The notes under the pieces were generated by a model. That model made no database searches and was not told the DNA's origin. It saw only the letters and a program-made list of their open reading frames with translations. A stretch of 29,752 nt of DNA. Source: Limnochordia bacterium. Lineage in GTDB: Bacteria; Bacillota; Limnochordia; Darwinibacteriales; B1SED10-159. Each line of letters starts with the position of its first letter. Within the stretch, counting starts at the first letter, position 1. The stretch is taken from the NCBI GenBank assembly GCA_007132255.1, contig SLOZ01000015.1, forward strand, positions 1 through 29,752, in the 5' to 3' direction. The position numbers and the translations under genes were made by a program. Of the stretch, positions 8,723-21,266 are shown piece by piece.

Positions 8723-10630
8723 TTACCGATCCAGCCAGAACTGCTCCGGGCTGTAGCGCATAGTGTATAACGTGTCCCAAAGCCAGAGACCTGTCTCGGG
8801 TACATTGCGGAGATCGTTGTTCACGATGACCGGCTGCGGAGCTTGCCCCACCGTACCGATAACCCAAAGATTTTCGGCTTGCGAAGCCAAAATCTTGTGA
8901 GCCAGCTCATCGCGCCGTGCTTGATCGGGCTCGGCTAAGACGTCCCGATACCACTGATGCAGCTCTTTAATGTGTTCCGGAGGTTCTTCACCAGAAGCAC
9001 CTTCAGAAGCAAACCAGCTCTCCCACGCCGGCCAAACTGAACGTTCCCAACCGGTGGATATAGGAACAATAAACTCCGGATCACGGGGGAAGTACATGTC
9101 TGTTGCCTTGTCTCCGTGCCACATTGTGGCATCCATCAGATTCGCCGGCGCTCTTTGCGTCTGCAGTTCCCCAGACACGCTGCGGCTGCGAACATCAATG
9201 CCCAATTCGCGCCATTGCTGCGAAACCAACTCAACGTTCGGCGTTTTTGGTGTCTCGATGTCGGCATACTCGATGGTAAACATCAGCCGTTGCCCATCGC
9301 TGCGCAGTCGATAGCCTTCACCATCGCGCTGCGTCAAACCGATTTCATCGAGAAGTTCATTGGCCCGAACAGGATCATACTCAATGTAAGCTTCTGCGTA
9401 TTCAGGACGGAATAGGTTACTTTCATTGATTACGGTATACTGACGGGGTATGGCCTGACCAAAGTAGATCGTGTTGCTGATTTCATCGCGATCGATACCC
9501 AGGGATAGCGCTCGTCGAAAACGCACGTCTTGGAAGATCTCACGCAGTACAGGATCCTGATGGGTTAGGTTCAGTTGGTAGATAACGTCGCTGCCCATCC
9601 CGGTTTCCCACAACAGCGTTGTGAAATTACCTGCCTCTTCGAAGCTACGGTAGAGCGGATAGTTCTGGACATCGGCCATATTGCCGACAAAATCCAGTTG
9701 ACCACTTAAGATCATGCCCTGAACCACTTCCAAATCCCCGGCTATTTCGGTTTCCACACGGTCAATGTATGGCAGCTGGTTGCCTTCCGTGTCCACCTTG
9801 TAATAGTAGGGATTGCGAGTCCAAATGCGACGGTCGCCAGTGGCTGATTCTAGAACATAGGCAGCCAATGTCGGAATGTCATGATTCAAAGGCCATCCCC
9901 AGACATGATCCCAGCGATGAGCACCGTAATACTGGATCCAATTGTCATGGCCAGCAGCCCGGAAACGTTCTTCCAGCTCATCCATGGGAACATAATCCGG
10001 ATGGAAATTGGACAAATAATGCTTGGCAATGAGCATCGACCAAACGCTGTCATGGACCAAGTGCTTGGCAAAGAACGGTTTCGGAGCTACGAAACGGAAC
10101 TCCACCGTGTAAGCATCCAAAGCTTCGACTTCCATCCACTCGCCGTTGGCTGTCCACTGCCGCGGCAGCCAAGACGTGTACTCTTCGTTGCGCAGTTCAC
10201 TCTCGTACCAAAACAGAATATCCTCGGTGGTGAACGGATGTCCATCGGACCAACGCAGACCTTCCCTGAGTTCCAAGGTCCAGACGGTGGCGTCTTCGTT
10301 GGAATAGATGTTCTTGGCCACTTCCGGCTGAATCTCTGTGCCGTCTTCGTTGGACACGAACAGACTTGGGAAACTGGCCACCATGGTGTCATCGCCATAT
10401 CCTGTAGGACTTAACGTTACGGTACGCAGGGTGCCTCCATAACGACCAATGCTTTCAATGGGCTCCACGACGTACACATCCGCAGGCAAACGCTCGTCGA
10501 CGGGTGGGAGTTCTCCACGTTCTACCAAACCATCGAGCATCGGTGACTGGCTGTATTGAGCCGCGCCAGCAGAACTTGCCAAAACAACCACCATCATAAC
10601 AAATAGCATAGTTCGCAACCAAATTCTCAC
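8723..10630 (-). CDS. ABC transporter solute-binding protein, family 5 (Opp/Dpp fold), oligosaccharide-binding type
   Basis: SQSPML...LPPVDERLP, IGRYGGTL, WSDGHPFTTEDILF, RNPYYYKVDTEGNQLPYID and FRRALSLGIDR, typical of sugar-binding family-5 proteins. Sec signal ending ASSAGA with no lipobox Cys. The ORF is open to ATG 10663; GTG at 10630 follows GGAG. Confidence 0.9.
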   Translation of the reverse strand: MRIWLRTMLFVMMVVVLASSAGAAQYSQSPMLDGLVERGELPPVDERLPADVYVVEPIESIGRYGGTLRTVTLSPTGYGDDTMVASFPSLFVSNEDGTEIQPEVAKNIYSNEDATVWTLELREGLRWSDGHPFTTEDILFWYESELRNEEYTSWLPRQWTANGEWMEVEALDAYTVEFRFVAPKPFFAKHLVHDSVWSMLIAKHYLSNFHPDYVPMDELEERFRAAGHDNWIQYYGAHRWDHVWGWPLNHDIPTLAAYVLESATGDRRIWTRNPYYYKVDTEGNQLPYIDRVETEIAGDLEVVQGMILSGQLDFVGNMADVQNYPLYRSFEEAGNFTTLLWETGMGSDVIYQLNLTHQDPVLREIFQDVRFRRALSLGIDRDEISNTIYFGQAIPRQYTVINESNLFRPEYAEAYIEYDPVRANELLDEIGLTQRDGEGYRLRSDGQRLMFTIEYADIETPKTPNVELVSQQWRELGIDVRSRSVSGELQTQRAPANLMDATMWHGDKATDMYFPRDPEFIVPISTGWERSVWPAWESWFASEGASGEEPPEHIKELHQWYRDVLAEPDQARRDELAHKILASQAENLWVIGTVGQAPQPVIVNNDLRNVPETGLWLWDTLYTMRYSPEQFWLDR

Positions 10631-10825
10631 TCGTCTCCACACTCCTTGATGAAATTTTTTCATTTCACACGTGGTTTACTCAATCTCCGTCCCAACTCTT
10701 GCTGCATCACCTCTTTCAAACGATCCGCTACAACCTATCAGCTCGGTCCACTGGTGGTCCTACATCTGTAACCAAATCGACCAACGCCACTGGCTGACGA
10801 CTGTGAAGAAGAAGGACTTCTCGTT

Positions 10826-10853
10826 AGCGAAACGGTTAGCTAACCGCTTCGCT
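10826..10853. promoter_or_regulatory. 28-bp palindrome made of two overlapping LacI-type operator-like sites
   Basis: AGCGAAACGGTTAGCTAACCGCTTCGCT; each half fits GCnAAnCGnTTnGC. It lies just downstream of the predicted promoter of the binding-protein gene. Confidence 0.6.
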
Positions 10854-10893
10854 GAGCCACGAAAACAACAACCATTTTTTTGGCCTATGTTAT

Positions 10894-10922
10894 ATTTTCG
10901 TCACGCCTTTGATAAATCCTGC
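10894..10922 (-). promoter_or_regulatory. sigmaH-like promoter candidate for the binding-protein gene
   Basis: Minus strand GCAGGATTT-N11-GACGAAAAT, immediately followed by ATAAC (the -10 region overlaps TATAAC). Confidence 0.5.
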
Positions 10923-10977
10923 CGAATCGCCGAATAAATAACGCCTCGTTACGGAACCAAGCCGAAAGCGGTTCTGG

Positions 10978-11035
10978 AATAAAATCCCACACACCTGGTA
11001 CTAGGAAGATTTTTCCTGTTACCAGGTGTGTGGGA
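10978..11035 (-). terminator. Rho-independent terminator of the dppABC-like operon
   Basis: Perfect 16-bp stem TCCCACACACCTGGTA/TACCAGGTGTGTGGGA with an inner AGGAA/TTCCT helix, followed by TTTTATT on the minus strand, 27 nt after the dppC stop. Confidence 0.85.
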
Positions 11036-11062
11036 ATCACTTCCAAGCATGCGCCACTCCAT

Positions 11063-11923
11063 CTAACCAGTGGGCTTTCCTTTGGGGTCCAAAGCGTCGC
11101 GCAGACCGTCGCCCATGAGATTGGCGCCGAGGACAACAAACATGATAAACAAGCCCGGAAAGACCTGAAGCCACCAACTGTCCGGCAAAAACCGCCGCCC
11201 CGAGCTAAGCATCTCTCCCCAATCTGATGTGGGGGGCTGTACACCCAACCCCAAAAAGCTCAACCCTGCCAATGACAGAATAGCGAACCCGATACTCAGA
11301 CTGGACTGCACAATAATGGGTGACATCGTGTTGGGTAGGATGTAGCGGCGCAGGATGCGTACTTCGCTGGCACCAATGGCCCGGGCCGCTTCCACATACT
11401 CCATCTCTCGCAGACTAAGCGTTTTCGAACGAACAATACGAGCATAGGCTGGAATGGACACCACGGACACTGCTAAGACAGCATTTCGCCAACCAGGTCC
11501 CAGCGTACCCACAATGGCCAAGGCAAGAAAAATCGATGGCAGTGACAGAAGGACATCCATACTGCGCATAATCAGGGAATCTACCTTTCCGCCAGCGTAC
11601 CCAGACCAGACCCCAAGCGTCGTTCCAATACTAGCACCGAACAACACTGGCAGCAGCCCGGACAACAGTGATACCCGGCCTCCGTAGAGCACGCGACTCA
11701 ATACACAACGACCAAACTCGTCGGTTCCAAATGGATACTCCATTGATGGACCTTCCAATCGGCGAAACCAGTTCTGAGCATTGGGTTCATGTGGTGCTAT
11801 CCAGGGCGCGGCTAGACTCAAAAACAGCACGACGGCCAGAAGTACGAATCCAGTGATAGCTACTTTGCTGTGCCAAAACCGTCGCCACGCTCTCGTCCCA
11901 GGGGACTGTCCCTTTGCGTTCAT
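11063..11923 (-). CDS. dppC: Peptide/nickel ABC transporter permease, DppC/OppC type
   Basis: PFGTDEFGRCVLSRVLYGGRVSL and EAA motif (EYVEAARAIGAS). Start set at the ATG after GAGGTGA. Confidence 0.92.
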   Translation of the reverse strand: MNAKGQSPGTRAWRRFWHSKVAITGFVLLAVVLFLSLAAPWIAPHEPNAQNWFRRLEGPSMEYPFGTDEFGRCVLSRVLYGGRVSLLSGLLPVLFGASIGTTLGVWSGYAGGKVDSLIMRSMDVLLSLPSIFLALAIVGTLGPGWRNAVLAVSVVSIPAYARIVRSKTLSLREMEYVEAARAIGASEVRILRRYILPNTMSPIIVQSSLSIGFAILSLAGLSFLGLGVQPPTSDWGEMLSSGRRFLPDSWWLQVFPGLFIMFVVLGANLMGDGLRDALDPKGKPTG

Positions 11924-11933
11924 AGATTTCACC

Positions 11934-12863
11934 TCATTCATAGCGGATGCGTGGATTCAGGACAGCGTAAAGTAGATCGACCATAAGATTAATCAAGGTA
12001 AACAGTACCGCAACGAAGAGAATGCTGCCCTGGATCACGGGCAGATCTCTGGCAAGAATGGCCTGCACAGTCAAACGACCGATACCAGGCCACGCGAAGA
12101 TAGTCTCCGTAAGTACGGCACCGCCAAGCAGCGAGCCAAATTGCAGACCGATCGTTGTAACGATGGGAATGGCTGCGTTGCGCAGTCCATGCCGAATCAC
12201 CACAACTCTAGAACGCAGTCCTTTGGCCCGAGCCGTGCGGATATAGTCTTCACCCAGAACATCTAACATACTCGAACGCGTCATGCGGGCAATGAATGCA
12301 ATGGAAGACAACCCGATTGCCATGGCTGGCATTACCAGATGTCTCCAAGTGCCACTGCCCGACGCCGGCAAGACTGGCCAGTAATAGGATAATCCCATCA
12401 TCAAAAGCAAGCTCAGCCAGAACACAGGTATCGATACCCCTAGCAGCGCCAAGAATGTTATGGCATAGTCTATTTTCGTGTTTTGTTTGAGTGCCGAAAC
12501 AATGCCCACTGGCAGCCCAATGCTCACTGCCGCTGCCAGCGACGTTATGGCTAATACCAGCGTGTATGGAAATCGAACCCACAGTTCCTGGGCAACCAGG
12601 CGATTCGAGCGAAACGAACGTCCCAAATCACCTCGCACCACACCACTAAGAAATGTCCAATACTGCTGATGCAGAGGCTGATCCAAGCCAAGATTAGAGC
12701 GAACTGTTTGTAGCTGCTCCTCACTGGCTCCCTGCCCCATTTCACCCAAAAGAACCCGGACGGGATCGCCGGGTGTCAACTGCATGATACCGAATACCAA
12801 GATGGTGACGCCCAATAAGACGGGTAGCAGAGTTATGATGCGTTTCAACAAGTAAGCGGTCAA
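11934..12863 (-). CDS. dppB: Peptide/nickel ABC transporter permease, DppB/OppB type
   Basis: PGDPV, GDLGRSF, RMTRSSMLDVL-EDYIRTARAKGL, ETIFAWPGIG and LNPRIR. TTG start after AAGGTGA; the ORF is open to 12914. Confidence 0.92.
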   Translation of the reverse strand: MTAYLLKRIITLLPVLLGVTILVFGIMQLTPGDPVRVLLGEMGQGASEEQLQTVRSNLGLDQPLHQQYWTFLSGVVRGDLGRSFRSNRLVAQELWVRFPYTLVLAITSLAAAVSIGLPVGIVSALKQNTKIDYAITFLALLGVSIPVFWLSLLLMMGLSYYWPVLPASGSGTWRHLVMPAMAIGLSSIAFIARMTRSSMLDVLGEDYIRTARAKGLRSRVVVIRHGLRNAAIPIVTTIGLQFGSLLGGAVLTETIFAWPGIGRLTVQAILARDLPVIQGSILFVAVLFTLINLMVDLLYAVLNPRIRYE

Positions 12864-12929
12864 GCGCGTCACCTTCTTCAGCGGAATTGCTAAGTTTGCC
12901 GTGGACCAGTGCACAACGGCATAGTAACG

Positions 12930-12982
12930 CAGCTGGCCCGGTTAACGAGCCAGCTGGTCATCACGTGAAAATCGGCACGTGA
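12930..12982 (-). other. Two stem-loops between dppA and dppB
   Basis: CAGCTGGCTCG-TTAAC-CGGGCCAGCTG (12930-12956) and TCACGTG-N8-CACGTGA (12961-12982). No U tail; probably mRNA-stabilising structures. Confidence 0.5.
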
Positions 12983-12993
12983 CGGTAATTCGG

Positions 12994-14502
12994 CTAATCC
13001 AAGGTCACATTAGCTACATCCAGGTTGATCCAGGAGAACGGAATATTCTCACCCTGAACACGAGCTTGTTTGGCATAACTAAAGAGGGGATAGTAGACCG
13101 TGGCAATGGGAGCCTCTTCATGGATGATTTCTTGGATTTCATGATAGACAGCCAATCTGCGCTCCATATCAGCGGTTGCTCGCCCTTCTTCAAGAAGTTG
13201 ATCGACCCGTTCATTCCGATAAAACGTGCTATTATTCTCAGGAATTTCCGAGGAGTGGAGCAGTGCATAGAGCGTATAGTCGGCATCTAGGGTCACTGTT
13301 CCCCAGCCGCTGAGAAACAGATCATAGTCACCGCCACTGGTTCGGCCTACGTAGGCACCATAGTCCATCATCTGAACGGTGAGTTCCACACCAATCTGAC
13401 CCAACAGAAACTGCATGGCTTGGGCCAATTGGTAAAGTTCGTCGTTTTGGTACGTCACCAACGTCAGCTGTAGTCCGTCAGCATAGCCCGCCGCTTCCAA
13501 CAGGTCCTCGGCCAAGTCCAAATCGAAGCTATACGGTTCTAGGTCGGCGTGAGCACCCCACACGGTTCTGGGGATCAATGCGGCCGCTTCTTCAGCCATA
13601 CCGCTGCGCAGTTGATGGACAATGGAATCCCGATCCAACGCATGCAGGATCGCTTGACGAACCCTTTGGTCACCGGTGGCTTCGCCTTCAGTGTTGAAAC
13701 CAATGAACGTGGATCCCCAGCCCAGCTCTTTAAACACTGAGATGTTAGGGTTTCGTTCTATGGTCGCCAACTGATCCGGTGGTACATGGAACATGATGTC
13801 AATGGAACCAGACTGAAGTTCCACCAGCTGGGTGCTGACTTCCGGAATAACTCGAATAAGCAAGTTCTCAACGGCAGGTGCTCCACCCCAATAGGCTGCA
13901 TTAGCCGCCAAATGCACGTCATCCCCGGAGCTCCAACGTTCGAAAACAAATGGACCCGTTCCTATAGGGTTCTGACCAATATCTTCCCCAAACGTCTCCA
14001 CAGCATTTCTGTTGACGATAGCCGTTACAGGATGGGTCAGATGGGCAAGCAAGGGAGCAAAGGGGCGTTCCGTATGAATGTCCACAACGAACTCACTAAC
14101 CACTTCCACACTGGAGACAGCACTCAGCACAAAAGCGCCAGCTGCGGCCGTTTCCGGAGCGATTAGTCGTTCAATACTGAATTTCACACTTTCAGCATTG
14201 AAGGTATCGCCGTTGTGAAAGGTAACGTCCTCACGCAGGGTGAAGCGCCAAGTGGTCTCAGCTACCATGTCCCAAGATGCAGCTAATCTCGGCAGGAAGC
14301 CTTCGGCATCTTTGGTGACCAGGGTGTCAAACACCTGGTTGGTTACCAAGAATGAATAACCGTTGAACGTTTGCTGAGGATCCAATGTTGTTGGTTCACC
14401 GGACGAAGCGACGGTCAATGTATTGGCCGCTGCCGGGCCAGCAGCACCAAGGCCAGCAAGAACGAGTACAGCAGTAACAAGCAAAGTTACGAACCGTTTC
14501 AC
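12994..14502 (-). CDS. Peptide/glutathione ABC transporter solute-binding protein (DppA/GsiB-like, family 5)
   Basis: PTTLDP, LREDVTFHNG, PIGTGPF and RVRQAI. Sec signal ending PAAA with no lipobox. GTG start after AAGGAGGT. Confidence 0.92.
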   Translation of the reverse strand: MKRFVTLLVTAVLVLAGLGAAGPAAANTLTVASSGEPTTLDPQQTFNGYSFLVTNQVFDTLVTKDAEGFLPRLAASWDMVAETTWRFTLREDVTFHNGDTFNAESVKFSIERLIAPETAAAGAFVLSAVSSVEVVSEFVVDIHTERPFAPLLAHLTHPVTAIVNRNAVETFGEDIGQNPIGTGPFVFERWSSGDDVHLAANAAYWGGAPAVENLLIRVIPEVSTQLVELQSGSIDIMFHVPPDQLATIERNPNISVFKELGWGSTFIGFNTEGEATGDQRVRQAILHALDRDSIVHQLRSGMAEEAAALIPRTVWGAHADLEPYSFDLDLAEDLLEAAGYADGLQLTLVTYQNDELYQLAQAMQFLLGQIGVELTVQMMDYGAYVGRTSGGDYDLFLSGWGTVTLDADYTLYALLHSSEIPENNSTFYRNERVDQLLEEGRATADMERRLAVYHEIQEIIHEEAPIATVYYPLFSYAKQARVQGENIPFSWINLDVANVTLD

Positions 14503-14727: not shown

Positions 14728-14755
14728 AAAAAAATAGACGCCCACAGGCGTCTAT
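14728..14755 (-). terminator. Rho-independent terminator after the SDR gene
   Basis: ATAGACGCC-TGTG-GGCGTCTAT followed by six T on the minus strand; the SDR stop codon lies inside the stem. Confidence 0.85.
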
Positions 14756-15495
14756 CCCATATACTGTCCACCATTCACAAACAAATTCTGTCCCGTTACA
14801 TAAGTGGCCTCATTCACCAAGAAGCTGGTCATTCGGAAGATGTCACGGACTGTCCCTAACCGCCCCTGCGGAATACGCGCTTCCATCTGCTCGCGTTTCA
14901 CCGGGTCGTGAAGCTGAAATCGTTCCATAACCTCTTCGGTTTCCATAAAGCCGGGTATCACACAGTTCACGGCAATTGTGGGAGCCAATTCTTGCGCAAG
15001 ACACTTGGTAAGGCTGATAACTCCGGCCTTAGCGCTGCAGTAATTAGCACCGTTTTTCCGCCCGTGGAGAGCTGTAGCCGCTCCCATATTAATGATCTGC
15101 CCACGAGTTCCTTGAAAGCGTTTGGCGTATTCCTGCGAGCAGATGAATGTACCGGTCAGCACAACATCCTGCACCTGCTGCCACTGGTCATCAGTCATGG
15201 TCAGAAACGGTCCATCCAAGTTGATCCCGGCGTTGTTGATGAGAACATCCACCATTCCCCAGCGGTCAGCAACAGCTGCGAACATTTGGCGAACCGAGTC
15301 CCGCTGCGCCACATTGGCCTGGCAGCACATTATGTCGCCTGGCTCGTCCTTAAGCGCTGAAGCCACCGCTTCGGCCTCATCGCCGCTGCGTGAATAATTG
15401 AGCACCACCCGATGGCCCTGTGCAGCGAAGCCTCTGACTAGTTCTTCTCCAATGCCGCGGCTCCCACCGGTAACAAGGATCGTCTTAGCATCCAT
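14752..15495 (-). CDS. Short-chain dehydrogenase/reductase (FabG-like fold, catalytic Ser position is Ala)
   Basis: TGGSRGIG, NYSRS (NADP-type), INNAG, YCSAK and VNCVIPG; has NMGAA where NxSS is expected. Confidence 0.9.
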   Translation of the reverse strand: MDAKTILVTGGSRGIGEELVRGFAAQGHRVVLNYSRSGDEAEAVASALKDEPGDIMCCQANVAQRDSVRQMFAAVADRWGMVDVLINNAGINLDGPFLTMTDDQWQQVQDVVLTGTFICSQEYAKRFQGTRGQIINMGAATALHGRKNGANYCSAKAGVISLTKCLAQELAPTIAVNCVIPGFMETEEVMERFQLHDPVKREQMEARIPQGRLGTVRDIFRMTSFLVNEATYVTGQNLFVNGGQYMG

Positions 15496-15507
15496 ATACT
15501 CACCCTC

Positions 15508-16347
15508 CTAACGTACTCGAATTATGGTTCGCTGTGCCCGTCCATCCAAAAGATGGGAAAGCCGATAGCGCGAATCACCGATAATCACCGTTGTCCCCTG
15601 CAGAATGGGTTCATGCAAGAATTGCAGCTTGGCCTTCATGCCATTGGCACCCAAGCGACTGCTGCCATTGCAGTATTGCTCTAAGAACTGCAATTGATCG
15701 ACAACCTCTTCGGGGTTCTTCCCGCTCACTTCCGGAATCAACGATGTCCTATCGTCAGGATCCCGCAAGATGCCTGGCGCCGACGTTAGTAAGAGAAGAA
15801 CCCGGGCCCTTACCAGAAGTGCGATTTGAGCAGCTGTTTCATCATTGTCGACACACTCCACTACTTTGCCGCTGTTCTGCCGCAGATTCATGAGTTCCAT
15901 CTTGCGAACCTCTTCAATGCTTACAGTGTCATTATAATTGACAATTGGAATCGCCCTCTGCTGCCGCGCTCGCATCAGGATTCCTCTGATATGAGCGCGG
16001 CGTTCCGGATCGTTGAAATGTGTGTGTTCCACAAGCACCTGTCGTACAGAGTACCGTGGATCCGTAAACCGGCGATAATTTTCCATCAAGATACTCTGTC
16101 CCTGAGCTGCGTAATCGGCTTTGGCTTCCTCGGACTCTGAATGTTCGAGTTCGCGGCCATCATTGTGCTTTCGATAGTCCAAACGCCCAATTTCCACAGC
16201 CCCGGAACTGACCCAAACAAACTCCGGTGTCAACTCAGCTCCCAAGCGACTGAAGACATTGTAGTCAATATCGTTGTCGTCCCGGCGTACCAAGGCCATC
16301 GAGCCAATCTTGCCAACAATTTCGTGATCAAACTGCAATTTACTCAC
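15508..16347 (-). CDS. Amino-acid-kinase family protein, divergent glutamate 5-kinase (ProB)-like, no PUA domain
   Basis: GKIGS, VSSGA, AAQGQ..LM, PIVNYND, DNDETAA, LLLTS and GMKAK parallel the ProB motifs KxGS, VSSGA, AAVGQ, NEND, DND and GGMxTK. Confidence 0.75.
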   Translation of the reverse strand: MSKLQFDHEIVGKIGSMALVRRDDNDIDYNVFSRLGAELTPEFVWVSSGAVEIGRLDYRKHNDGRELEHSESEEAKADYAAQGQSILMENYRRFTDPRYSVRQVLVEHTHFNDPERRAHIRGILMRARQQRAIPIVNYNDTVSIEEVRKMELMNLRQNSGKVVECVDNDETAAQIALLVRARVLLLLTSAPGILRDPDDRTSLIPEVSGKNPEEVVDQLQFLEQYCNGSSRLGANGMKAKLQFLHEPILQGTTVIIGDSRYRLSHLLDGRAQRTIIRVR

Positions 16348-16368
16348 CTCACAACCACCCTACAACCA

Positions 16369-17424
16369 TCAATACGGATGCATGCCAAAGAAGTCCAACC
16401 CGGTTCGTTCATCCAGTCCAAAGAGCACATTCATGTTCTGCACACCAGCCAAGGCTCCGCCTTTGCCGACGCTATCCAGAACGCTGAAAATCACGACGCG
16501 GCCTCGCTCTTCGTCTACATCCAGCCCAATATGACAGAAATTCGTTCCAGACACTGCGTTAACCCACGGGTAAGGACGATGCTGCCAAGGTGCATTGGGA
16601 TCACGGGGCAGGTCGTAGACTTTTACGAAGTATTCACCGTCATAGAAGTTTCGATAGATCTCAAGCAAATCATTGCGGGATACGTCGCTCTGCAGAAAAC
16701 CGTGACCAACGGCCAAAATTCCCCGAGTAATAGGCACATAGTGGCTTGTAAAATGGACTTGCACGGGGTCATCGGTCAAAAAGCCCAGTTCCTGTTCCAT
16801 CTCAAACGTATGGCGATGGCCAACCACGTTATACGGTACGATGTTATTGCCAATCTCTGGGTGATGAATGGATGTGTCCGTCTCGGCACCGGCACCTGCG
16901 GTCCCGGAAAGCCCATCCACAACTAACTTTTTGCTGTCAACTAAGCCTTCGTTCACAAGAGGCGCAAATCCCAGAATCGCTGCCGAAGAAAAGCAACCGG
17001 GGTTGGCCACAATGCTCGTCTCTTTCAACTGTTCCCGATGTAGTTCAGGAATCCCGTACACTGCTTCCGCCACAAGGCTAGGCTGCGAATGCGTCTTTCC
17101 ATAGACACGGTTCCACTGTTCAATGTCTTTGAGTCGGAAATCCGAACCTAGATCAATAACCTTGGTCCCGTCGGCCAGCATATCCGGTGCCAGCTCCATA
17201 ATGTTACCTGTTGGTAGAGCTGCGAAGACCACGTCCACCGGCGTGATTTTATCCGGATGAATGAAATGTACTCCAGCCTCGTATAGATTACGGTGTACCA
17301 TCTCGGCTTTTTGCTCAGTGCGGCTCGTGGCCCAGATCAACTCTGCCTCTGGGTGCCGGAGCAGTATTCTAAGAGCTTCGCCCCCCATATAACCCGATGC
17401 GCCTAAGACTCCAACACGAATCAT
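16369..17424 (-). CDS. argC: N-acetyl-gamma-glutamyl-phosphate reductase (ArgC/LysY)-like protein
   Basis: GASGYMGGE, IDLGSDFRL, YGIPEL, ANPGCF (catalytic Cys), HRHTFEM, RGIL and QNMN. Start set at the ATG after AGGAG. Family assignment is firm, exact substrate is not. Confidence 0.85.
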   Translation of the reverse strand: MIRVGVLGASGYMGGEALRILLRHPEAELIWATSRTEQKAEMVHRNLYEAGVHFIHPDKITPVDVVFAALPTGNIMELAPDMLADGTKVIDLGSDFRLKDIEQWNRVYGKTHSQPSLVAEAVYGIPELHREQLKETSIVANPGCFSSAAILGFAPLVNEGLVDSKKLVVDGLSGTAGAGAETDTSIHHPEIGNNIVPYNVVGHRHTFEMEQELGFLTDDPVQVHFTSHYVPITRGILAVGHGFLQSDVSRNDLLEIYRNFYDGEYFVKVYDLPRDPNAPWQHRPYPWVNAVSGTNFCHIGLDVDEERGRVVIFSVLDSVGKGGALAGVQNMNVLFGLDERTGLDFFGMHPY

Positions 17425-17466
17425 ACCATCTCTCCTCTCCAACACTCTTTCTCAGCTCGTGCTGCG

Positions 17467-18858
17467 TTACTGTCCGGCATTTATCCGAATCTGATCCAAC
17501 AGCCGTTCCATTTGCAGGTCGCTGTCGGTTGCCACGTCAGCTGCGGTAATTGGCAGTTCCCAATCCGGATATAGACTGTCGCTGGGGTCCCGATTGGGAT
17601 GGGGCCTCACGTAACGCTTGTGGGCTACGGTGAGCAGCAATCCCGAATTCGGTAACGTAAACTCCAGGGAATCTCCATAGCCCGTCGGTCTCTGCCCCGT
17701 GGGTTCACCGGCGACGATTCCTAAGTCATTATCTTGAATCACCACAGCAAACCAGTGGGCCGTGCCTGCCGTCATCGGAGATGTCAGCAAATACAATTGC
17801 CCTTCATAGGACGGCGTATCCAAAGGACGCGGTGGCAGATTCATGGTGTAACCGCCGAACAATCGCGTCAGATGAGTGACGCGTTTCACACCCGTCGTCT
17901 CTTCATAACCTCGTTGCTGTGCGGCTTGTTGAGAATAGCGAATCTCGCCCGCATAGCCTTCAATCCGCTGTTCTGGGAAAAACCGCAGGAACTCAGGGAT
18001 AACATCCACGTTGCCGCCAACATTCCAGCGCAGATCCAAGACCACGTGTTCTATTCCATGCTCAACGACAGCTCGGAAAAAGCGCTGCAGCTCTGCGCTG
18101 TAGCCTTCTTTTTGATCAGCGCTGTCCAAGAAGAACACACCGATGTCCTCTTCATCAACAATTCGCCAGCCCCAAGCTGGACGAAGCGGGACCAAAGAGT
18201 TCACCGTGACCGGTACGCTCAGTGGAACCGCCGTGACAAGACACTCGTCGTTGCGGCAGAAGGTCAGTTCCACATGCCCATCCACCACTGCCCCAATTTG
18301 GTGCAGAAAGGATCCCGAATGCAGCTGCCGTGCTGTGCGATTCTTCAGATTGTGCTCATTCTCTGTGGGGAGAACCGCATCGGCCTTGCTCAATATTTCC
18401 TCCGGTGTCTGTCCACCTAATTCCCGCACGAGCCACCCCGGCTCGACGTCTATTCTCGCCGTAGCTCCTGCAACCACCAACCCGTCTTGGGACCACCAAA
18501 ATCGCAGAGGCAGCTCATTGGACTCGTGTTCGAAAAGCAACGTCGTGTGGCTGTCTTCCAACAGCGCCGCCAAACTCAATGTCAGATAATAAAACGCCTC
18601 GATGGGCTTAGGTTCTTCCACAGAACGCCTAGCTTGAACGAACGAGCGCACGAACGTGTCCACACCCACCGCATGGAACGGTTCGGGGTGTACCTGTCGG
18701 ATTGTGGTTTCTAGAAACTCTAGATCGTCGACCATATCAGCCGGCGCCAAGAGCTTACTCAGGGCACCGTGAATGGGCTGTGCCGAGATCAATACCACCA
18801 GCAGGATGACCGGCCCGACAAGGGTCACTAGACCAACTGGGAACGGGTGTCGCCTCAA
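17467..18858 (-). CDS. S41-family (tail-specific protease-like) exported protein; catalytic Ser appears replaced
   Basis: N-terminal hydrophobic segment, D.H.T, VLDLRWNVGGN, LYLLTSPMTAGTAHWF, GEPTG, LPNSGL and PD. Confidence 0.75.
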   Translation of the reverse strand: MRRHPFPVGLVTLVGPVILLVVLISAQPIHGALSKLLAPADMVDDLEFLETTIRQVHPEPFHAVGVDTFVRSFVQARRSVEEPKPIEAFYYLTLSLAALLEDSHTTLLFEHESNELPLRFWWSQDGLVVAGATARIDVEPGWLVRELGGQTPEEILSKADAVLPTENEHNLKNRTARQLHSGSFLHQIGAVVDGHVELTFCRNDECLVTAVPLSVPVTVNSLVPLRPAWGWRIVDEEDIGVFFLDSADQKEGYSAELQRFFRAVVEHGIEHVVLDLRWNVGGNVDVIPEFLRFFPEQRIEGYAGEIRYSQQAAQQRGYEETTGVKRVTHLTRLFGGYTMNLPPRPLDTPSYEGQLYLLTSPMTAGTAHWFAVVIQDNDLGIVAGEPTGQRPTGYGDSLEFTLPNSGLLLTVAHKRYVRPHPNRDPSDSLYPDWELPITAADVATDSDLQMERLLDQIRINAGQ

Positions 18859-19024: not shown

Positions 19025-20185
19025 TCAAATTTTATCTATACTCAATGCCTTTAGTTTCACGCCCAACTCAATGGCACCAGCCAGCCGCAGCCCAGCGTTC
19101 ACTGTCAGATGTTCAGCGTCTTCCATAGCGGTTCGCAGATCCATAACACCGTCTACGATGGGCAGTGTCAGGACAATACCCGCATTTCGGAACTCGGCTA
19201 ATGATCCAGATATCTGGCCAGCCACCGCCACGGTGGGAATGCCCCGTTTCTTGGCCATCTCAGCAGCGGCCACTGGAACTTTGCCGTAGAATGATTGGGC
19301 ATCCATACTACCTTCGCCTGTAACCAACACGTCGGCTTGGGCTAAGGCTTGCTCCAGCCCTACGAACTCCGCAACCACATCAAACCCACTCCGCGTCTGA
19401 CACTGGGCAAAACAACTCAGCGCAAACCCAATGCCGCCAGCTGCTCCCGCACCGGGACAAGAGCGCACGTCACGGCCGGTCTCTGCCTGCAGCAGTTCCG
19501 ACCAAGACTCCATGCCGTGCTCGAAAGCTTCTATTTTACTGCTCTGCAAACCCTTTTGCGGTCCAAATATGTGAACCGCTCCTTCTGGACCCAGTAAGGG
19601 ATTGGTTACATCGGATGCCAAGATGATCTCTACATTCGCAAGTTCACTGCGCAAACCGGAAGCATCCAAACGTACTATGCGATCCAAAGGACCGTCTAAC
19701 CAATCCATTTCGCCGCTGTCTGTATAGAACACCATGCCCAGTGCCTGCAGACAGCCATATCCACCATCCATGGTGGCACTACCGCCAAGACCCAAAACAA
19801 TTCGACGGGCACCCTGGGTCAAGGCATCAGCGATCAGTTGACCCGTCCCATAGGAAGAGGCCCGAGCCGGGTCTCGTTCCTCTTCAGACAGAAGTGGCAG
19901 TCCCGATGCTTGTGCCATCTCAATGACCGCCAACGAATCTTCAGGAAACCAAGCGTAGTCCGCTTTGATACGACGACCCAGCGGGTCGGTAACAGCCACC
20001 GAGATTCGCTGTCCGCTTTGCCCAAAAAGGACGGCGTCGACGGTCCCTTCACCGCCATCTGCCAACGGCAGCAAAGTACATCGCAAACCGGGATTCCACG
20101 CTGTGATCCCAGCTTTAAGGGCTTCGGCTGCTTGAGTACTTGTAAGAGATCCCTTAAAGGCATCTGGTGCTATAACGATCTTCAT
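19025..20185 (-). CDS. glxK: Glycerate kinase
   Basis: MKIVIAPDAFKGSL, LADGGEGT, SSYGTGQLI, LGLGGSATMDGG, DVTNPLLG..GA..FGPQK, GAGAAGG and TGEGSMD.QS..GK. Confidence 0.95.
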   Translation of the reverse strand: MKIVIAPDAFKGSLTSTQAAEALKAGITAWNPGLRCTLLPLADGGEGTVDAVLFGQSGQRISVAVTDPLGRRIKADYAWFPEDSLAVIEMAQASGLPLLSEEERDPARASSYGTGQLIADALTQGARRIVLGLGGSATMDGGYGCLQALGMVFYTDSGEMDWLDGPLDRIVRLDASGLRSELANVEIILASDVTNPLLGPEGAVHIFGPQKGLQSSKIEAFEHGMESWSELLQAETGRDVRSCPGAGAAGGIGFALSCFAQCQTRSGFDVVAEFVGLEQALAQADVLVTGEGSMDAQSFYGKVPVAAAEMAKKRGIPTVAVAGQISGSLAEFRNAGIVLTLPIVDGVMDLRTAMEDAEHLTVNAGLRLAGAIELGVKLKALSIDKI

Positions 20186-20197
20186 GCGGTTTCCTCC

Positions 20198-21133
20198 TCA
20201 AGCCGGGGGGCCTTGGCGTGCCAACTGTCGCTGACGTCTCGCCGAACGGGCACCGAAATAGTTGGCTCCCCAAACACCGGTAATGATCATCCCTCCGCCA
20301 AGCCAATGGTACCAATACAAGACCTCGCCCAACAGTACAACACTGGCAATAACCGCCACCAATGTCGTTAAGCTCGGGAACGCACTGACCTGACTAGCCC
20401 GCAGACGTGACAGAGCAAAATTCAGCAAAAAGAAGGCCGCAACACTGGACAACACCCCCAGGTACACCACACCACCCACCACTTCCGGGATGACTAAGGG
20501 CGCTAGAAACGAATTCAGTTCCCCGGCAACAAGATGCTGGACAATACTGGCAGGGAAAAAGATAGCGGCACCGAAGTGCATCATCACAAAGGTCATTTCT
20601 AGCGGACGAAATCGCTGCGAAAGATGGCGAGAAAGAACAGAGAAGCTCGCTCCAGCCAACGGTGCCCCCAAGAGAATGACTAGACCTAAAACATTGGTTC
20701 CGAGGGCTTCGGATGCCTGCATGATTCCGATGAGGAGTACGCCAAGCACGGACATGACGACGGCGCCAATCTGCAGCGGCGTCGGATGTTCCTTCAGAAA
20801 AACTCTAGCAAAGAAAATGGTAAATATGGGAATAACGGCCACCATCATACCTGCTTCCGATGCCGATGTCATCTGGATCCCCACAGTCTCACAGATGAAA
20901 TACATGAATGGCTGAAAAAAACCCAGCAGTAGAAGGGATTTCCACTGGTGGGCATTGAGTTTGACGCGAATCAAGCCCAAAACACGTAAACCCTGCATAA
21001 CGGCGGTGGCCAGGATGAATCGCAGGGCTAGCAAATGCAGTGGATCAATATGTTGAAGGGCCGTGCGTGCGAACGGAAACGAAAACCCAAAAATAAGTGC
21101 AAAACCAACGGCTGCTGCAATGGGATAGTTCAT
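20198..21133 (-). CDS. EamA/DMT family transporter
   Basis: About ten hydrophobic segments in two EamA-like halves (G.SF...R..L, LLALRF, AS.AG). Start set at the ATG after GGAGGAGG. Confidence 0.88.
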   Translation of the reverse strand: MNYPIAAAVGFALIFGFSFPFARTALQHIDPLHLLALRFILATAVMQGLRVLGLIRVKLNAHQWKSLLLLGFFQPFMYFICETVGIQMTSASEAGMMVAVIPIFTIFFARVFLKEHPTPLQIGAVVMSVLGVLLIGIMQASEALGTNVLGLVILLGAPLAGASFSVLSRHLSQRFRPLEMTFVMMHFGAAIFFPASIVQHLVAGELNSFLAPLVIPEVVGGVVYLGVLSSVAAFFLLNFALSRLRASQVSAFPSLTTLVAVIASVVLLGEVLYWYHWLGGGMIITGVWGANYFGARSARRQRQLARQGPPA

Positions 21134-21266
21134 GGACTCTTCCTCCTCCACTTTGGGTTCGCCCTGCAGGGCAAAATCCCTTCTCTGCCACGGACTTTTC
21201 CCTTACGACGCCGTCGAATGATGTACCGAATGTACTACATAGTAGACTTATGGGAGGTTGATTGTA

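Follow-up and report, generated by a model that had tools for sequence, protein, structure and literature searches.

An operon joining an ArgC-like reductase, a divergent ProB-like kinase and a serine-less SDR in Limnochordia: a candidate non-orthologous route from glutamate to proline

What is made by an operon in which a ProB-like kinase stands between an ArgC-like reductase and a short-chain dehydrogenase/reductase (SDR) that lacks the catalytic serine of its superfamily? This question is raised by a cassette of four genes on the minus strand of contig SLOZ01000015.1 from a Limnochordia bacterium (assembly GCA_007132255.1), the 29,752 nucleotides of which were analyzed whole and are referred to here as the window. 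The original prediction had been a proline-type route leading from kinase to reductase to SDR. On the basis of sequence and genome comparison, we modestly favour the view that the ArgC-like, kinase and SDR genes constitute a non-orthologous pathway from glutamate to proline. In such a pathway the divergent ProB-like kinase would phosphorylate the γ-carboxylate of L-glutamate, and the ArgC-clade reductase, using its Cys, its His-Arg-His motif and NADPH, would convert γ-glutamyl phosphate to glutamate-5-semialdehyde. The semialdehyde would cyclize spontaneously to pyrroline-5-carboxylate (P5C), and the serine-less SDR might then reduce the C=N bond of P5C to give proline. The first two steps, which are the supported ones, are probable when taken together; the whole three-step assignment with the SDR included is plausible but, on balance, slightly doubtful. 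Comparative genomics (the conserved trio, the missing proB, proA and proC genes and the proB and proC neighbours found elsewhere) now backs the predicted route, the SDR step being one that we infer. Nothing was found that favoured the other outcomes offered at that time, namely pipecolate or an amino alcohol as product, or operation in the oxidative direction.

The cassette consists of four co-directional open reading frames separated by gaps of 42, 21 and 12 nt, in the order S41-peptidase-like gene, ArgC-like gene, kinase gene, SDR gene. The three genes of the proposed pathway encode the ArgC-like acyl-phosphate reductase (16369-17424, minus strand, ATG start; P0002, 351 aa), proposed to be a γ-glutamyl-phosphate reductase; the divergent amino-acid kinase (15508-16347, minus strand; P0001, 279 aa; AA_kinase 53.9 bits), proposed to be a glutamate 5-kinase and with a TTG at 16338 as a possible true start; and a classical-type SDR with neither Ser nor Asn in the catalytic tetrad (14752-15495, minus strand; P0004, 247 aa; adh_short 182 bits), which may be a P5C reductase analogous to ProC. 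A strong intrinsic terminator (14731-14758, minus strand), with a stem of 12 pairs, five of them GC, and a following run of T, stands directly after the SDR stop codon and closes the cassette. The predicted arrangement of genes, gaps and terminator was therefore recovered. The predicted promoter is weak: ahead of the S41-like gene the scan detected no site matching the sigma-70 consensus, and the candidate has a spacer of 15 nt by our count.

Conservation of the trio was followed in the genome of the window itself (G000, a metagenome-assembled genome (MAG) of 3.27 Mb, 79% complete), in a genome of the same genus (G001, 95% complete) and in one from a second genus of that family (G002, 98% complete). 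In all three, the ArgC-like, kinase and SDR genes stood in one order and with tight spacing, and hence are kept in two genera, the encoded proteins being 76-92% identical and both flanks having changed. A trio confined to this strain, or an ArgC-like protein that was the only ArgC of its genome, had been named as grounds for refuting the prediction, and neither was borne out. In genome-wide family searches, canonical proB, proA and proC went undetected in all three genomes, with 0 matches to the proA model TIGR00407. A canonical argC (436.8 bits) was found on another contig (C286) of the window's genome with argB approximately 1.4 kb downstream; the ArgC-like gene is therefore not the only ArgC of this genome and is not required for arginine synthesis there. 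Within the window, as had been noted before, there was no argJ, argB, argD, proA, proC or lysW/lysX. At Rfam gathering thresholds no RNA element, T-box and riboswitch included, was detected either in the window or at the corresponding loci of G001 and G002.

The order was then considered by family, f1 being the family of the three cassette genomes, f4 its sister family, and f2, f3 and f5 further families. Canonical proB, proA and proC were distributed as all or none: all three were present in f2, f3 (9/9) and f5 and in one of the 27 f4 genomes, and none was found in f1 or among the other 26 genomes of f4. One distribution was shared by the kinase and the SDR orthologue, which occurred in 3/3 genomes of f1 and in 0/38 elsewhere in the order. 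Three patchy and normally stand-alone families would appear to have been joined in an ancestor of f1, and the meeting of such unlinked families in one operon, in genomes where no proBAC was found, argues for their functional coupling.

With respect to the reductase, the ArgC-like protein scored 360.5 bits against the argC model TIGR01850, above the cut-off of 233.6. The homologues of this protein make up a large group in which most members are exactly 351 aa long and identity is 55-67% between widely differing phyla; thousands of sequences, from candidate phyla radiation (CPR) bacteria, Bacillota, Binatia, Pseudomonadota, Chloroflexota and others, belong to the clade. In a tree of 170 sequences (87 ArgC-like and 83 canonical ArgCs) the ArgC-like group formed a single clade (support 100, stem length 0.57) apart from the canonical ArgCs, and the canonical ArgC of the window's own genome was placed among the latter. 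Members linked to proB branched first within the clade, with supports for that order of only 81-82.

Residues were compared, in window numbering, between 176 clade members and the 83 canonical ArgCs. Cys144 and His203-Arg-His205 were kept in the clade, with C144, H203 and H205 conserved to at least 95% in both groups. Their counterparts in the Denitrovibrio ArgC of known crystal structure (DaArgC) are C149 and HRH 208-210, of which the former carries out covalent catalysis and the latter binds the phosphate and carbonyl groups (PMC10170137). In at least 94% of the 176 clade members, on the other hand, the near-invariant canonical residues K172, R/K180, L229, Y241 and N318 were replaced by L, A, Y, H and S, respectively, and the clade carries an added W-Q-Y/H-x-P insertion. 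R/K180 directly follows the GAG channel motif, positions 172, 175 and 180 flank the channel residues as these are defined by the DaArgC crystal structure (PMC10170137), and L229 is probably L233 of that structure. Since Cys and HRH are kept while the channel residues are replaced, acyl-phosphate catalysis would be retained and the channel for the N-acetylated side chain would have been rebuilt. Measured against the ArgC family, the protein exceeds the hidden Markov model cut-off and has the catalytic Cys and the HRH motif, but it has neither the channel residues nor a place among canonical ArgCs, and no arg genes adjoin it. When the four cassette proteins were scanned against Pfam and NCBIfam, no ProA or aldehyde-dehydrogenase family appeared, and the ArgC-like protein is proposed to act like ProA, not to belong to its family.

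Elsewhere, in the loci where clade members are linked to proB, the ArgC-like gene occupies the usual place of proA. In a Peregrinibacteria MAG (L039) it stands first in a run continued by proB (308 bits) and then proC (214 bits), in which stop and start codons overlap, and the same arrangement is found on a metagenome contig (L121); on a further contig (L120) the ArgC-like gene is followed by proB before the contig end cuts the locus. In a Christensenellaceae MAG (L042) proB (297 bits) stands directly before the ArgC-like gene. No proA was found in either of the two named genomes. Canonical proB was over its cut-off in 19 of 20 species genomes with a clade member, and eight of the 20 were without a real proA, four giving no match and the other four nothing stronger than 19-62 bits. 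A role of the clade in reducing γ-glutamyl phosphate would explain such proB-positive, proA-negative genomes.

These contexts also bear on the possibility that adjacency in the cassette has no pathway meaning, the ArgC-like protein being a bifunctional or surplus reductase of N-acetylglutamyl phosphate, the kinase an unrelated housekeeping enzyme, as its linkage to gpsA in Clostridia might indicate, and the SDR an ordinary reductase. Each of the three families is mostly stand-alone elsewhere, and a protein above the argC cut-off, whose clade supplies the sole ArgC-type gene of five genomes, would not be out of place in such an account. It is nevertheless highly improbable, as gene order and tight spacing were kept at 76-92% identity across two genera with changed flanks, the pairing of kinase and ArgC-like gene recurs independently with canonical proB in other lineages, and the canonical substrate-channel residues have been lost.

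For the kinase, the best named match was to the proB model TIGR01027 at 83.2 bits (80.5 in the genome search), below the cut-off of 186; the ProB model gave 83 bits as against 34 for LysZ. In alignment A1, which sets six members of the kinase family beside four canonical ProBs, that of E. coli among them, the E. coli positions K10, G12, S50, G51, N134, N136, D137, E143, N149, D150 and K217 were invariant and D148 nearly so; we take these to serve catalysis and glutamate binding in the E. coli enzyme. The family has no PUA domain and carries two insertions, one of which, 16 aa long, falls between E143 and D148 of the E. coli protein. Structural neighbours of the kinase in the ESM Atlas were glutamate 5-kinases, among them fusions of kinase with P5C reductase and of kinase with aldehyde dehydrogenase.

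Proteins of this kinase family are approximately 275 aa long and gave 3317 database hits, mostly clostridial. In the clostridial order of genome G357, represented by 39 species genomes, 31 genomes carried canonical proB and proA without this kinase, five carried this kinase and proA without canonical proB, and three carried none of these genes. This complementarity, perfect within that order, is the strongest evidence on the kinase, and it supports the view that the family fills the role of ProB. A search for co-occurrence in two samples of 300 genomes of the same phylum returned only the seed genomes, the family being rare there. Of the closest relatives outside the cassette genomes' family (68-70% identity; L024-L026 and L029-L031), the genes lie approximately 10-35 nt after gpsA, which encodes glycerol-3-phosphate dehydrogenase, and in L029-L031 a gene for a YfbR-like HD phosphohydrolase follows. 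As a separate observation from the ESM Atlas, the fusions of a glutamate-5-kinase-like domain to P5C reductase occurred in Minisyncoccota and those to aldehyde dehydrogenase in Bacteroidota and others, natural fusions which indicate that the proline pathway is packaged variably in uncultured lineages.

The divergence of both proteins could also be taken to mean that the cassette does not use glutamate itself but, for example, 2-aminoadipate (leading to pipecolate) or a substituted, N-acyl or peptide-bound glutamate, and makes a compatible solute or specialised metabolite in place of proline. None of the three enzymes is typical: the kinase with its two insertions lies below the proB cut-off, the channel of the ArgC-like protein is strongly rebuilt and holds the additional W-Q-Y/H-x-P insertion, and orphan members of the clade are often found in contexts unrelated to amino acids. 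We consider such a substrate quite unlikely, however, because the glutamate 5-kinase positions are conserved, the kinase replaces proB in genomes where proA is kept, genuine proB and proC are found as partners of the ArgC-like clade, and the trio has no conserved neighbours for tailoring, nonribosomal peptide synthesis (NRPS), carrier proteins or export.

Glutamate being the favoured substrate, the third gene of the proposed proline pathway remains to be placed. The SDR had been described as lacking its Ser, and the position of that residue is indeed taken by Ala139, 13 residues before Tyr152; Ala was found there in 109 of the 120 nearest homologues and is thus a trait of the subfamily. Tyr152 was invariant among these homologues, and Lys156 was Lys in 105 and Arg in 15. 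The Asn of the tetrad is replaced by Val112, a position at which 89 of the 120 homologues have Asn. Of the classical tetrad Asn-Ser-Tyr-Lys, only Tyr152 and Lys156 are consequently present, and the subfamily has a distinctive G-R-K-N-G-x-N-Y-C-S-A-K loop. The Pfam scan found no ProC-family domain in the SDR (F420_oxidored, P5CR_dimer; TIGR00112). Its tentative assignment as P5C reductase is based on its place as third gene of the operon, on the occurrence of its orthologue within the order only together with the kinase trio, and on the failure to find proC in the three genomes. Moreover, an SDR without Ser and Asn should be a poor carbonyl reductase, given the SDR mechanism as restated in PMC7540600, and this lends some support to the assignment.

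It is at this step that the principal alternative arises, in which kinase and ArgC-like protein do yield glutamate-5-semialdehyde and P5C but the SDR is not the P5C reductase. An unrecognised enzyme might then finish proline, the semialdehyde might be transaminated to ornithine, or the SDR might make an amino alcohol. The evidence for the first two steps would stand in each of these cases, the SDR has no proline-linked context outside f1, and the known imine-reducing SDRs retain Ser (PMC7540600). We nonetheless regard this alternative as unlikely. No proC was found in the three genomes, and the SDR is the only reductase of the operon besides the ArgC-like step, lies 12 nt from the kinase and has its orthologue, within the order, only in kinase-carrying genomes. 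Use for ornithine is disfavoured by the canonical argC and argB of the window's genome, with which the acetylated ornithine route is probably present, and formation of an amino alcohol by the poor carbonyl reduction to be expected of an SDR lacking Ser and Asn (PMC7540600).

A number of observations weigh against the proposed glutamate-to-proline pathway as a whole or in part. All of the evidence is comparative. Since proBAC went unseen in 26 of the 27 genomes of the sister family f4, its apparent absence from f1 could mean auxotrophy. A gene of the ornithine cyclodeaminase family was found in G001 only, in a search that did not extend to the AgrE-type cyclodeaminase family. For the kinase, the five complementary clostridial genomes may be one clade and hence reflect a single evolutionary event, Mobilitalea carries both canonical proB-proA and this kinase, and the closest relatives of the window kinase follow gpsA, not proline genes. 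For the SDR, the contexts of homologues (two loci) were stand-alone and without proline genes, and as the imine-reducing SDRs surveyed in PMC7540600 keep the catalytic Ser, loss of Ser is no positive mark of imine reduction.

The ArgC-like clade provides further such points. Over the 20 clade genomes, proA was over its cut-off in 11, and a twelfth (G344) holds proA fragments. Most clade members are orphans in unrelated contexts, as was the case in approximately 50 loci. Five of these contexts come from the subclade of the window, and the neighbours there were genes for a thioesterase, an RDD protein, a CYTH protein, HAD hydrolases and a PFL-like glycyl-radical enzyme. Given these orphan contexts and the proA of many host genomes, the clade need not have one function. 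In five genomes, furthermore, the clade member is the only ArgC-type gene, and may there still reduce N-acetylglutamyl phosphate.

Two kinds of clade locus deserve description in their own right. The five genomes with a sole ArgC-type gene belong to FCPU426, Binatia and one deltaproteobacterial MAG (L040, L041, L043, L050, L051; G337, G338, G340, G347, G348). In these, proB was present and proA was not found, which suggests either one reductase for both arginine and proline or a different synthesis of arginine; in such genomes the clade member may serve both pathways. On a Brocadiaceae contig (L206, 3113-5805) genes for HAD-family hydrolases stand on both sides of the ArgC-like gene, the upstream one at a distance of 2 nt, and on another contig (L207, 5354-7056) the ArgC-like gene overlaps the end of a gene for a CYTH-domain protein. 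These neighbours might hint at partners that handle phosphate but are not kinases.

The first gene of the cassette, encoding the S41-peptidase-like protein (17467-18858, minus strand; P0003, 463 aa; Peptidase_S41 53 bits), was not retained as part of the pathway, although it had been counted as a cassette member. The nucleophile Ser of the T-F-S-S-A motif, present in 53 of 56 homologues, is Gly365 in this protein (two other aligned homologues also have Gly), and the N-terminus is hydrophobic and resembles a signal anchor. Its synteny is looser than that of the trio: in G002 a DUF6544 gene (L028:6983-7696), absent from the window, lies between the S41-like and ArgC-like genes and overlaps the S41-like stop codon. 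A part in the pathway is accordingly unlikely, and the protein is probably an inactive, extracytoplasmic pseudo-protease and a bystander.

The neighbouring importer, which had been suggested as supplier of the substrate, was likewise rejected, as it is not conserved beside the trio: G001 lacks the binding-protein gene that adjoins the SDR in the window, and the transporter is non-syntenic in G002. In the window it is a peptide/nickel-type ABC importer (8723-14502, minus strand) with two family-5 binding proteins and two permeases and with no adjoining ATPase genes, and the first permease scored 353.9 bits against a cut-off of 350 with the 'Opp2B nickel ABC transporter permease' model. Upstream of the cassette, genes for a glycerate kinase and an EamA-family transporter (19025-21151, minus strand) represent a partly conserved flank, as both are also upstream in G002, where an alpha-amylase-family gene has been inserted into this side.

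If the proposed pathway is correct, its consequences extend to genome annotation. The way from glutamate to proline is taken to be fixed as ProB-ProA-ProC, and genome-based predictions of auxotrophy (GapMind, gut-microbiome reconstructions) rely on this; ProA with ProB has been used as the signature of proline synthesis from glutamate in such a prediction (PMC9026213). Were the clade to consist of γ-glutamyl-phosphate reductases, many organisms scored as proline auxotrophs, or as having gaps, would be prototrophs, and thousands of annotations as "N-acetyl-gamma-glutamyl-phosphate reductase" would be misnamed. Nature would also have run the reverse of a laboratory recruitment that has been studied in depth, that of ProA to replace ArgC (PMC6941894 and related work). 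Should the SDR be a P5C reductase, natural imine reducers would gain a new scaffold. A large group of genes labelled "ArgC" may thus work in proline synthesis. The broader proposal, that a fully non-orthologous proline pathway exists in nature and that the widespread ArgC-like clade is a misannotated γ-glutamyl-phosphate reductase, is put forward tentatively and is rather doubtful at present. No description of an ArgC-fold γ-glutamyl-phosphate reductase or of an SDR-type P5C reductase was found in such literature as could be searched, including a GapMind preprint of 2026.

Of the known systems, ProB-ProA-ProC (EC 2.7.2.11, 1.2.1.41 and 1.5.1.2) shares with the cassette the proposed chemistry, the number of steps and the compact operon, and the cassette kinase is a distant homologue of ProB. 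The differences lie in the proteins: the cassette reductase has the ArgC/Asd semialdehyde-dehydrogenase fold, whereas ProA has the fold of the aldehyde-dehydrogenase superfamily; the third enzyme is an SDR and not of the ProC family; and the kinase, without PUA and with two insertions, reaches 83 bits where 186 are required. ArgB-ArgC follows the same logic of kinase and then acyl-phosphate reductase, and the cassette reductase has the fold, the Cys and the HRH motif of ArgC and a score above the argC cut-off, but it falls in a separate clade with replaced channel residues and is partnered by a kinase of the ProB type, not the ArgB type.

In the LysZ-LysY/LysW system of the aminoadipate pathway, LysY is also an ArgC homologue that acts after an enzyme of the AA-kinase family, and a LysY structure (PDB 5eio) is the second-best solved relative of the ArgC-like protein at 219 bits. 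A carrier system of the LysW type was rejected for the cassette, in which there is no LysW, LysX or LysZ gene, the gaps of 12-42 nt are too small for a LysW-sized open reading frame, and the kinase is much nearer to ProB than to LysZ. The SDR resembles FabG-type enzymes in its Rossmann TGxxxGxG, NNAG and YxxxK motifs and is approximately 40% identical to FabG structures, the best PDB match being 4jro at 173 bits. Dihydropteridine reductase has Ala at the SDR Ser position. From classical SDRs and from the SDRs that reduce C=N bonds, of which the known imine reducers keep Ser, the cassette enzyme differs by Ala in place of Ser, Val in place of Asn and its distinctive loop.

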